IMG/VR virus record: IMGVR_UViG_3300008113_000307
Coordinates: 1-21,918 of that record
Origin: a virus
Lineage: Duplodnaviria > Heunggongvirae > Uroviricota > Caudoviricetes
DNA: 21,918 bases
Direction: 5' to 3' (one strand)
Position numbers and translations under genes: made by a program. This document shows, in pieces, positions 21,393-21,918 of this stretch. The notes under the pieces are model-generated. The model was not told the origin of the DNA and made no database searches. It saw only the letters and a program-made list of their open reading frames with translations. Every line of letters begins with the position of its first letter. The first letter of the stretch is position 1.

Positions 21393-21506
21393 ATGTTGAT
21401 AACCGGACTCACTCTACTGCAAAGCTATTTTGTCATAGGCGTTGGATTTGGTATAGTAATGACCCTGCTATTTTTAGGGTTAATTTTGTTAGCCAAAAAC
21501 TCATGA
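21393..21506 (+). CDS. Small single-pass membrane peptide (37 aa)
   Basis: MLITGLTLLQSYFVIGVGFGIVMTLLFLGLILLAKNS*; preceded by TTAAATA and ATGA-coupled to the next ORF. Confidence 0.6.
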   Translation: MLITGLTLLQSYFVIGVGFGIVMTLLFLGLILLAKNS

Positions 21507-21631
21507 ACACAATATTAATAATACTTGGATTGACTGCTTTGATAATGCTTGTGATAGCCGTGGCAGTTTTTCGCAGTGCTGTTCAGGACCTGGAATCCGC
21601 AGACGAGTACAAGTGCCCGGTTGACAGCTGA
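21503..21631 (+). CDS. Small single-pass membrane peptide (42 aa)
   Basis: MNTILIILGLTALIMLVIAVAVFRSAVQDLESADEYKCPVDS*; TGATG-coupled to the next ORF. Confidence 0.6.
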   Translation: MNTILIILGLTALIMLVIAVAVFRSAVQDLESADEYKCPVDS

Positions 21632-21756
21632 TGAACATGGTGGCGATTATATTTTGGATGAACGTTTTGGCCATTGTGTCAATCAGCGCAGGAGTGATCC
21701 TCACTGTGGCACGAGACCTGCTGGTTGACAACCCCGCAGATAAATATATACTGTGA
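21631..21756 (+). CDS. Small single-pass membrane peptide (41 aa)
   Basis: MNMVAIIFWMNVLAIVSISAGVILTVARDLLVDNPADKYIL*. Confidence 0.55.
   Translation: MNMVAIIFWMNVLAIVSISAGVILTVARDLLVDNPADKYIL
21725..21752 (+). promoter_or_regulatory. Candidate promoter(s) for the tmRNA gene
   Basis: TTGACA(21725-30)-16 nt-TATACT(21747-52), overlapping a late-type ATAAATA (21740-46). Confidence 0.5.
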
Positions 21757-21759
21757 GTT

Positions 21760-21918
21760 ATTGCTGTATGAAGCGATGAGAAACGGATTCAAGACTCGGG
21801 GGCAGTGCCCGAATGGTCCACCATAAACACATTGTCAGCACTGTGGGAAGCGCAGATCGACAAGACTAGAACAAGGTTTGAATCCAAACAGTGTGTTTAT
21901 AATGGGCCATACACAGGA
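21760..21918 (+). ncRNA. ssrA: Circularly permuted (two-piece) tmRNA gene: acceptor piece, intervening segment and start of the coding piece (truncated; 5' boundary approximate)
   Basis: T arm TCGGG-GGCAGTG-CCCGA (21796-812) and acceptor 3' strand ATGGTCC-A-CCA (21813-23). The complementary 5' strand GGGCCAT lies downstream at 21904-10, with a G3-U70 pair, followed by ACACAGGA. Confidence 0.82.

Follow-up and report, generated by a model that had tools for sequence, protein, structure and literature searches.

A circularly permuted tmRNA gene of a giant uncultured phage with an alpha-like T-loop/D-loop pair, a beta-like body, and a tRNA-shaped RNA in its spacer

The alphaproteobacterial two-piece tmRNA is said to have been described for Caulobacter ssrA by Keiler and co-workers in 2000, and its betaproteobacterial equivalent reportedly by Sharkady and Williams in 2004. 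Two-piece tmRNAs of phages are already documented as well: they are known from the Methylophilales phage Melnitz, pelagimyophages, and phiCbK-like Caulobacter phages, and 53 unique permuted forms are listed from isolates, mostly aquatic (Buchholz 2022, PMC9004378). The tmRNA database contains 79 phage sequences, and the same source describes as unique a permuted tmRNA whose intervening sequence contains a true tRNA-Ala (PMC11915505), the sole precedent in print that we found for the spacer RNA described below. Huge phages encode both tmRNA and SmpB (PMC7162821), and the Sinorhizobium jumbo phage AP-J-162 has a tmRNA (PMC11242549). The gene described here is of a known kind; this copy mixes the features of two subtypes and carries an uncatalogued RNA in its spacer.

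Like the phages in PMC9004378, the phage studied here is a large aquatic one with a permuted ssrA gene, a promoter for that gene, and no phage SmpB seen. It shares with Melnitz a GGC-type T-loop (GGCAGUA in Melnitz). The two differ in the tag, which in Melnitz is alpha-style and 14 residues long (ANDNYVPVDYALAA) and here has 10 residues, and in the glutamine riboswitch, which Melnitz has and this gene lacks; the spacer here also contains a tRNA-shaped RNA. This RNA resembles the nested tRNA-Ala case (PMC11915505) in its location within a stretch predicted to be removed from the tmRNA precursor, but it is not a true tRNA and recurs in about 100 phage contigs. The spacer itself is 80 nt long, whereas the bacterial median is 31 nt.

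The window, that is, the whole stretch of DNA that was analysed (21,918 nucleotides), corresponds to bases 1-21918 of a 130,710-base IMG/VR record with a G+C content of 46% and a CheckV completeness estimate of 38%. The downstream part of the contig was also read, and its coordinates continue the window numbering. The record belongs to a giant uncultured T4-related phage. Its portal protein and tail genes relate it to Phosso, Atu_ph07, and PA5oct, with portal protein identities of 51-53% to Phosso and Atu_ph07 (phages of Rhizobiaceae) and 48.5% to the Pseudomonas phage PA5oct. The tmRNA gene lies within a tRNA island (contig 20539-33806) in which ARAGORN finds 34 tRNAs covering all 20 amino acids. 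Three extra tRNA-like Rfam matches (contig 23329-23408, 25714-25778, and 30120-30190) are not called by ARAGORN. A search of the 130-kb fragment for SmpB (PF01668) found none, a miss that at an estimated completeness of only 38% is uninformative as to reliance of the phage on host SmpB.

A preliminary description, made from the window, had recognized a phage-borne circularly permuted two-piece tmRNA gene at its end. The window boundary falls 15 bases inside the coding piece, and because the gene is cut there, the detectors respond weakly to the window alone: ARAGORN makes no call, and Rfam gives truncated sub-threshold matches (29.8 bits with alpha_tmRNA and 27 bits with tmRNA_permuted). On the contig, ARAGORN reports a tmRNA* at 21731-22114 with the tag ANDDAFLMAA followed by two stops, and the Rfam model tmRNA_permuted (RF04321) matches over model positions 1-213 with 110.1 bits (cut-off 47); the alpha_tmRNA score also rises above its cut-off. 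The T arm, the acceptor 3' strand, and the encoded CCA precede the acceptor 5' strand, all of them exactly where the preliminary description had placed them (Table 1). As it had also proposed, GGGCCAU and AUGGUCC form a 7-pair acceptor stem with G3.U70, and the T-loop is the non-canonical GGCAGUG; A73 is present. Downstream of the window lie GGAUCGAU, which matches GATCGAC at all but one position, the 5' strands of helix 2, the pseudoknot-1 stem, and a tag ORF reading ANDDAFLMAA. In helix 2, GAUUCAA pairs with UUGGGUC and UGCUG pairs with CAGCA. The tag frame starts with a GCN resume codon, ends with a hydrophobic residue and Ala-Ala, and is closed by a stop codon. These results establish the permuted gene and show that this ssrA gene is intact and complete.

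Table 1. Features of the permuted tmRNA gene. Positions above 21918 lie in the contig downstream of the window.
Feature	Position	Strand	Remarks
Sigma-70-type promoter, TTGACA-16 nt-TATACT	21725-21752	+	11/12 matches; top promoter-like site in 1.1 kb scanned
Acceptor piece of tmRNA	21759-21823	+	Rfam alignments; covariation in 56 distinct relatives
Helix-2 3' strands UGCUG and GAUUCAA	21762-21766 and 21786-21792	+	Within the acceptor piece
T stem UCGGG/CCCGA; T-loop GGCAGUG	21796-21800/21808-21812; 21801-21807	+	
Acceptor 3' strand AUGGUCC; A73; encoded CCA	21813-21819; 21820; 21821-21823	+	
Intervening segment, 80 nt	21824-21903	+	Closing stem extends the acceptor stem
tRNA-shaped module	21827-21896	+	Conserved core GUCAG...CCAAAC, 21834-21889
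Start of coding piece, truncated by the window	21904-21918	+	Acceptor 5' strand GGGCCAU (21904-21910), then start of the D-loop analogue AGGAUCGA
Helix-2 5' strands UUGGGUC and CAGCA	21923-21929 and 21947-21951	+	Contig; coding piece
Pseudoknot-1 stem 1, CAGU/ACUG	21952-21955/21964-21967	+	Compact pseudoknot-1 region
Tag ANDDAFLMAA, ten codons	21991-22020	+	Resume context UAAAU-GCA
Stops UGA UAG	22021-22026	+	Situated in a hairpin
3' hairpin, 9 bp, then CUUAUUU	22043-22074	+	Loop resembles CUGGCAACAGAA, conserved in alpha and beta

In the beta_tmRNA alignment, the promoter columns of the model fall on the promoter in Table 1, and a -10-like box is kept at an equal distance in the relatives. 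The sequence GGTTGACA is present twice (at about 21619 and 21723), each copy supplying the -35 element for a promoter-like site. Two short ORFs of hydrophobic appearance lie directly upstream of the gene (window 21505-21757), and the second terminates within the tmRNA promoter. At the other end, the 3' hairpin probably acts as a transcription terminator, since its counterpart in the closest relatives precedes a clear U run. The run in the studied gene (CUUAUUU) is weak, and the sole terminator-like site reported in the 1.1-kb scan lies about 170 nt beyond the hairpin, so the 3' end of the tmRNA is uncertain. This distant site is listed on the minus strand; on the plus strand, the same hairpin precedes a T run.

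Conservation of the gene was examined among its viral relatives. An exact scan of IMG/VR with the T arm found at least 129 contigs, many of them longer than 100 kb. Fifty-six distinct relatives were extracted, which share a CAAGAC motif before the T arm; acceptor pairing was also an extraction criterion. The first T-stem pair is UA in 9, GC in 46, and CG in 1 of the relatives, and both helix-2 segments carry double compensatory changes. Stem 1 of pseudoknot 1 (CAGU/ACUG) covaries with CGGU/ACCG, and stem 2 (loop GCGAU with AUC..GC) shows no variation among those relatives that have it. Acceptor pairs 4-7 change on both sides and G3.U70 is kept in 56/56, counts that are imposed by the extraction rule and are therefore partly circular. 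The canonical tag design is preserved across the relatives. Their spacers, 25-382 nt long, vary in sequence and are in every case closed by a stem, as expected for a removed stretch. Some relatives have long spacers (170-380 nt), as at positions 297-820 of locus L390 and in L053, L085, L106, and L123 (339-382 nt), and these may carry other cargo, for example small ORFs.

Closest to the studied gene are L063 (73% identity, tag ANDNAFLMAA), L385 (ANEDAFLMAA), L390 (ANDNAFLMAA), and L046 (ANDSRFLMAA); the coding pattern of the tag ANDDAFLMAA itself was absent elsewhere in an exact scan of IMG/VR. All of the closest relatives are viral, and standard T-loops occur in some of them. BLAST searches of isolate phages with the tmRNA and two relatives gave no close homologue, and a search against 187 sampled permuted tmRNA loci, almost all bacterial, gave no similarity beyond the T arm. 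A 38-nt T-arm query proved too insensitive in BLAST for a survey of isolates. A 35-nt match to RaK2-like Klebsiella phages was discarded as unrelated to tmRNA; it falls between tail-spike genes. The gene belongs to a large lineage seen solely in uncultured viral contigs, in which a beta-like body and tag are combined with an alpha-like T-loop/D-loop pair.

The assignment of the parts to the alpha and beta types is based on Rfam models and motif comparison rather than on phylogeny. The preliminary description had called the gene alphaproteobacterial in type, and this holds for the tRNA-like domain. The gene shares with the alphaproteobacterial tmRNA (RF01849) the gene order, the GGC-type T-loop, G3.U70, and a similar 3' hairpin loop (CUGGCAACAGAA). 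An identical T arm occurs in bacterial genomes almost exclusively in Alphaproteobacteria, and AGGAUCGA, which has the form AGG(A/C)UCGA, is the D-loop analogue that accompanies GGC-type T-loops there; phage tmRNAs with standard T-loops carry GGUUUCGA in its place. The score with alpha_tmRNA, 62.5 bits against a cut-off of 50, is a marginal pass, and L386, the one alpha-type family member scored, reaches 143 bits. The designation does not extend to the body. The 5' hairpin and about 40 nt after the tag are missing and align as gaps to RF01849, the tag does not start with ANDN, the tag and layout follow the beta type, and the T-loop flips within the family.

The leader without a hairpin, the 10-residue tag, and the short post-tag region with two hairpins constitute the layout of the betaproteobacterial tmRNA (RF01850), and the tag codons, including the terminal AUG GCC GCC, match the beta_tmRNA consensus. 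The pseudoknot-1 loop also starts with AGGCGA as in RF01850. This loop is also found in an alpha-type member and is not beta-specific. The 24-nt pseudoknot-1 motif was considered as a marker of the beta body and rejected, for it is also present in the alpha-type L386 and hence is not diagnostic. Unlike the betaproteobacterial tmRNA, which has the T-loop UUCGAUU and GGUUUCGA, the gene has alpha forms of both the T-loop and the D-loop analogue; the standard combination of UUCGAUU with GGUUUCGAC is replaced by GGCAGUG with AGGAUCGA. Its beta_tmRNA score of 68.6 bits lies under the cut-off of 84 and above its alpha score. Taken alone, this value has little weight, as genuine alpha tmRNAs also reach 40-72 bits with the beta model. 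Within the same phage family, however, there are members that score 84-157 bits on beta_tmRNA and pass the cut-off. We dropped the interpretation of the 68.6 bits as a mere cross-reaction in view of the members at 113-157 bits, which indicate that the beta affinity of the family is real.

A scan of IMG/VR with the 24-nt pseudoknot-1 motif allowed the relation between the two loops to be followed, the T-loop being resolved in 66 newly found permuted genes. The T-loop was of the UUC type in 58 of the 66, and all but one of these had a GG(N)UUCGA-type partner, the exception being L431 (GGGAUCGA). In six of the 66 it was of the GGC or UGC type, and every one was paired with AGGAUCGA. At loci L351-L468 and L024-L142, UUCGACU or UUCGAUU with [U/A]GGUUUCGA stands against GGCAGUG, GGCGGUA, or UGCAAUU with AGGAUCGA. 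Some pairs, with T stem and acceptor in common, differ essentially in the seven loop bases alone, as in GCGGG-UUCGACU-CCCGC-CAGGUCC versus GCGGG-GGCAGUG-CCCGC-CAGGUCC. Even within the subgroup nearest to the studied gene, with tags ending in -AFLMAA, in which the coding pieces are about 79% identical, the T-loop is UUCGAUU in L390, GGCAGUA in L385, and GGCAGUG in the studied gene. Since the T-loop and its partner switch jointly inside one phage family, the loop type is no reliable marker of lineage or host.

The spacer represents the new element of this gene: it holds a conserved, covariation-supported, tRNA-shaped RNA that is not catalogued in Rfam. The 80-nt spacer is predicted to fold with -34.2 kcal/mol (z-score -4.5), and its core recurs at 93-98% identity in contigs in which the tmRNA itself is only 70-79% identical to the present one. 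The module within it is closed by a stem of 9 bp. Its D-like hairpin has the loop GUGGGA, its anticodon-like hairpin has a loop of five nucleotides (GACAA), and a T-loop-like UUUGAAU sits on just two Watson-Crick pairs. A degenerate scan of IMG/VR found 113 stretches, 102 of them with the whole module, and the structure was tested on 41 distinct copies. In these copies, seven pairs of the 9-bp closing stem are changed on both sides, and the closing pair of the anticodon-like hairpin is CG in 19, AU in 17, and GC in 5. The copies have a UUCGAAU T-loop on two G-C pairs, and 89.6% of the cells are paired. The covariation score was 0.528, compared with 0.162 in shuffles (0/500) and at most 0.134 with slid partners.

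The module lacks the features of a tRNA as modelled by RF00005, having a 5-nt loop and two Watson-Crick T-stem pairs, and an Rfam search with it, the tRNA model included, returned nothing at E<=10. ARAGORN calls it solely at relaxed thresholds. A model built from the module (R1) gives 93.4 bits on the studied copy, which is the single copy in the record. The sole other R1 match in the record (26 bits, E about 0.001) is an unusually long tRNA-Ile(tat), 90 nt by ARAGORN, at contig 24618-24713. The module was absent from the isolate phages searched. Classified by context, 26 copies are located in the spacer of a tmRNA gene and 23 directly upstream of such a gene; 35 have tRNAs on the same strand within 60 nt. 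We presume that the module is probably either a handle by which RNase P or RNase Z is brought to separate the two pieces, or an RNA released as a third product or tRNA mimic. The wider proposal, in which the precursor gives rise to three RNAs, the spacer being a selected tRNA-shaped handle or mimic, and the T-loop and D-loop are exchanged as a portable unit, is offered tentatively; we would put it somewhat below an even chance.

The preliminary description had also suggested an alphaproteobacterial host and a tag altered so as to redirect proteolysis. The present data do not support the former and give no evidence for the latter. With regard to the tag, its design is canonical: it begins with AND, position 6 is aromatic, and a hydrophobic residue precedes the terminal Ala-Ala. 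Including the charged alanine, AANDDAFLMAA equals the E. coli tag AANDENYALAA in length and in the position of the aromatic residue. Among 88 viral tags found on the same T arm, 55 have 10 residues, with the form ANDxx[F/Y]xLAA.

With regard to the host, a GGC-type T-loop is also present in Melnitz, whose host is OM43, the tag is unlike the alphaproteobacterial tags sampled, and a Polynucleobacter-1 RNA points to Burkholderiales. The sampled alphaproteobacterial tags (114 and about 56) all start with ANDN and mostly have 11-13 residues, whereas the studied tag starts with ANDD and has 10. In the isolate phages, the form of the tmRNA does not track the host class: Melnitz combines GGCAGUA with the tag ANDNYVPVDYALAA, the Sinorhizobium phage Phosso combines GGCGGUA with the tag ANDNVSTKVALAA, and standard T-loops are found in the permuted genes of the Stenotrophomonas phage Moby and the Bordetella phage PHB04. 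The Polynucleobacter-1 RNA (RF01718) lies outside the window at contig 119610-119745 on the plus strand and scores 110.3 bits (cut-off 37). The motif is listed for Burkholderiales and for fresh water or estuary (Weinberg et al. 2010), and it can thus be taken as a clue to both host and habitat. The host clues point, weakly, to freshwater Burkholderiales. Our estimate gives about an even chance to Burkholderiales or another beta- or gammaproteobacterial host, a clearly smaller one to other groups, and a smaller one again to Alphaproteobacteria.

Two further observations were made during these comparisons. The permuted tmRNA of Phosso (PV764938.1, 349596-350198, minus strand) is unannotated; it scores 113 bits with RF04321, was missed by ARAGORN, and has an intervening sequence of about 405 nt. 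No permuted tmRNA like that of Phosso was found in Atu_ph07 and PA5oct. In addition, JBPBQX010000175.1 derives from a MAG labelled Janthinobacterium lividum, and permuted tmRNAs are present in 151/151 sampled genomes of its order; the best 30 matches examined have ANDN tags and GGC-type T-loops. These features suggest that the order is alphaproteobacterial and that the betaproteobacterial label given by the submitter, Janthinobacterium lividum, or the binning is wrong.

On this basis, we consider it very probable that this giant relative of T4 has at the locus an intact and expressed ssrA gene in circularly permuted form, located in a tRNA island and working in ribosome rescue. Transcription from the one promoter would give a precursor of about 325 nt comprising the acceptor piece, the spacer, and the coding piece. 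The tRNA-processing enzymes would then cleave the precursor at G1, where the coding piece begins, and shorten the upstream part to its encoded CCA, so that the spacer is excised and the two RNAs remain joined via the acceptor stem and helix 2. The encoded CCA and the variable spacer with its closing stem lend such a maturation indirect support. The complex would be charged with alanine through G3.U70 and A73 and delivered by host SmpB and EF-Tu to ribosomes stalled on broken mRNAs. Translation would restart at GCA and add (A)ANDDAFLMAA, freeing the ribosome and marking the peptide for host proteases. The phage may benefit in that ribosomes are kept free while the host mRNA is being destroyed.

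Other readings of the locus were weighed against this one. A recent capture of an alphaproteobacterial ssrA gene from an alphaproteobacterial host seems unlikely to us. It would agree with the T arm identical to that of many Alphaproteobacteria, the alpha form of AGGAUCGA, and the alpha_tmRNA score above cut-off, and the nearest portal proteins (51-53%) are those of Rhizobiaceae phages, of which Phosso has an alpha-type tmRNA with the tag ANDNVSTKVALAA. Yet the similarity to the 187 sampled loci ends with the T arm, the 5' hairpin and the post-tag region of the alpha type are absent, and the sampled alphaproteobacterial tags, all ANDN and mostly of 11-13 residues, differ from the present one. 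The closest relatives are viral, some of them with standard T-loops, and the portal protein of PA5oct is nearly as close (48.5%).

The RNA might also be made without having rescue as its main role, acting instead as a decoy or dominant negative against the host tmRNA, or in a retargeted tagging by which host proteins are destroyed or phage proteins spared. A CDS-less tmRNA-like RNA of phage DS6A is reported to inhibit the host tmRNA in E. coli (cited in PMC11915505), and selective tagging of host proteins was proposed by Buchholz et al. (PMC9004378). The present tag ends with MAA rather than LAA, and the exact scan did not find it elsewhere in IMG/VR. However, all elements for normal trans-translation are kept, including UAAAU-GCA and a canonical degron-like tag, the -LMAA ending recurs in ANDNAFLMAA, ANDSRFLMAA, and ANEDAFLMAA, and AUG GCC GCC is the beta_tmRNA consensus; we regard such a role as improbable. 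It is hardly credible that the locus is a functionless, decaying relic or an attachment-site fragment. Although phages that integrate into ssrA do carry tmRNA fragments (PMC9004378), the present gene is complete with its own promoter, the phage is of the T4-like jumbo type, and its relatives show helix-compensating changes and a conserved tag frame, changes that break the frame or the helices not being common.

The gene is a further example of the translation-rescue parts that giant phages are already documented to carry. The occurrence of an alpha T-loop on a beta-like body, and the switching of the loop among close relatives, indicate that the host can hardly be read from the type of a phage tmRNA. 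The joint change of T-loop and D-loop analogue amounts to a natural experiment on the tertiary contact in the tRNA-like domain, which both SmpB and AlaRS have to accept. The spacers of permuted tmRNAs can carry selected RNA cargo, and a role of this cargo in separating the two pieces is testable.
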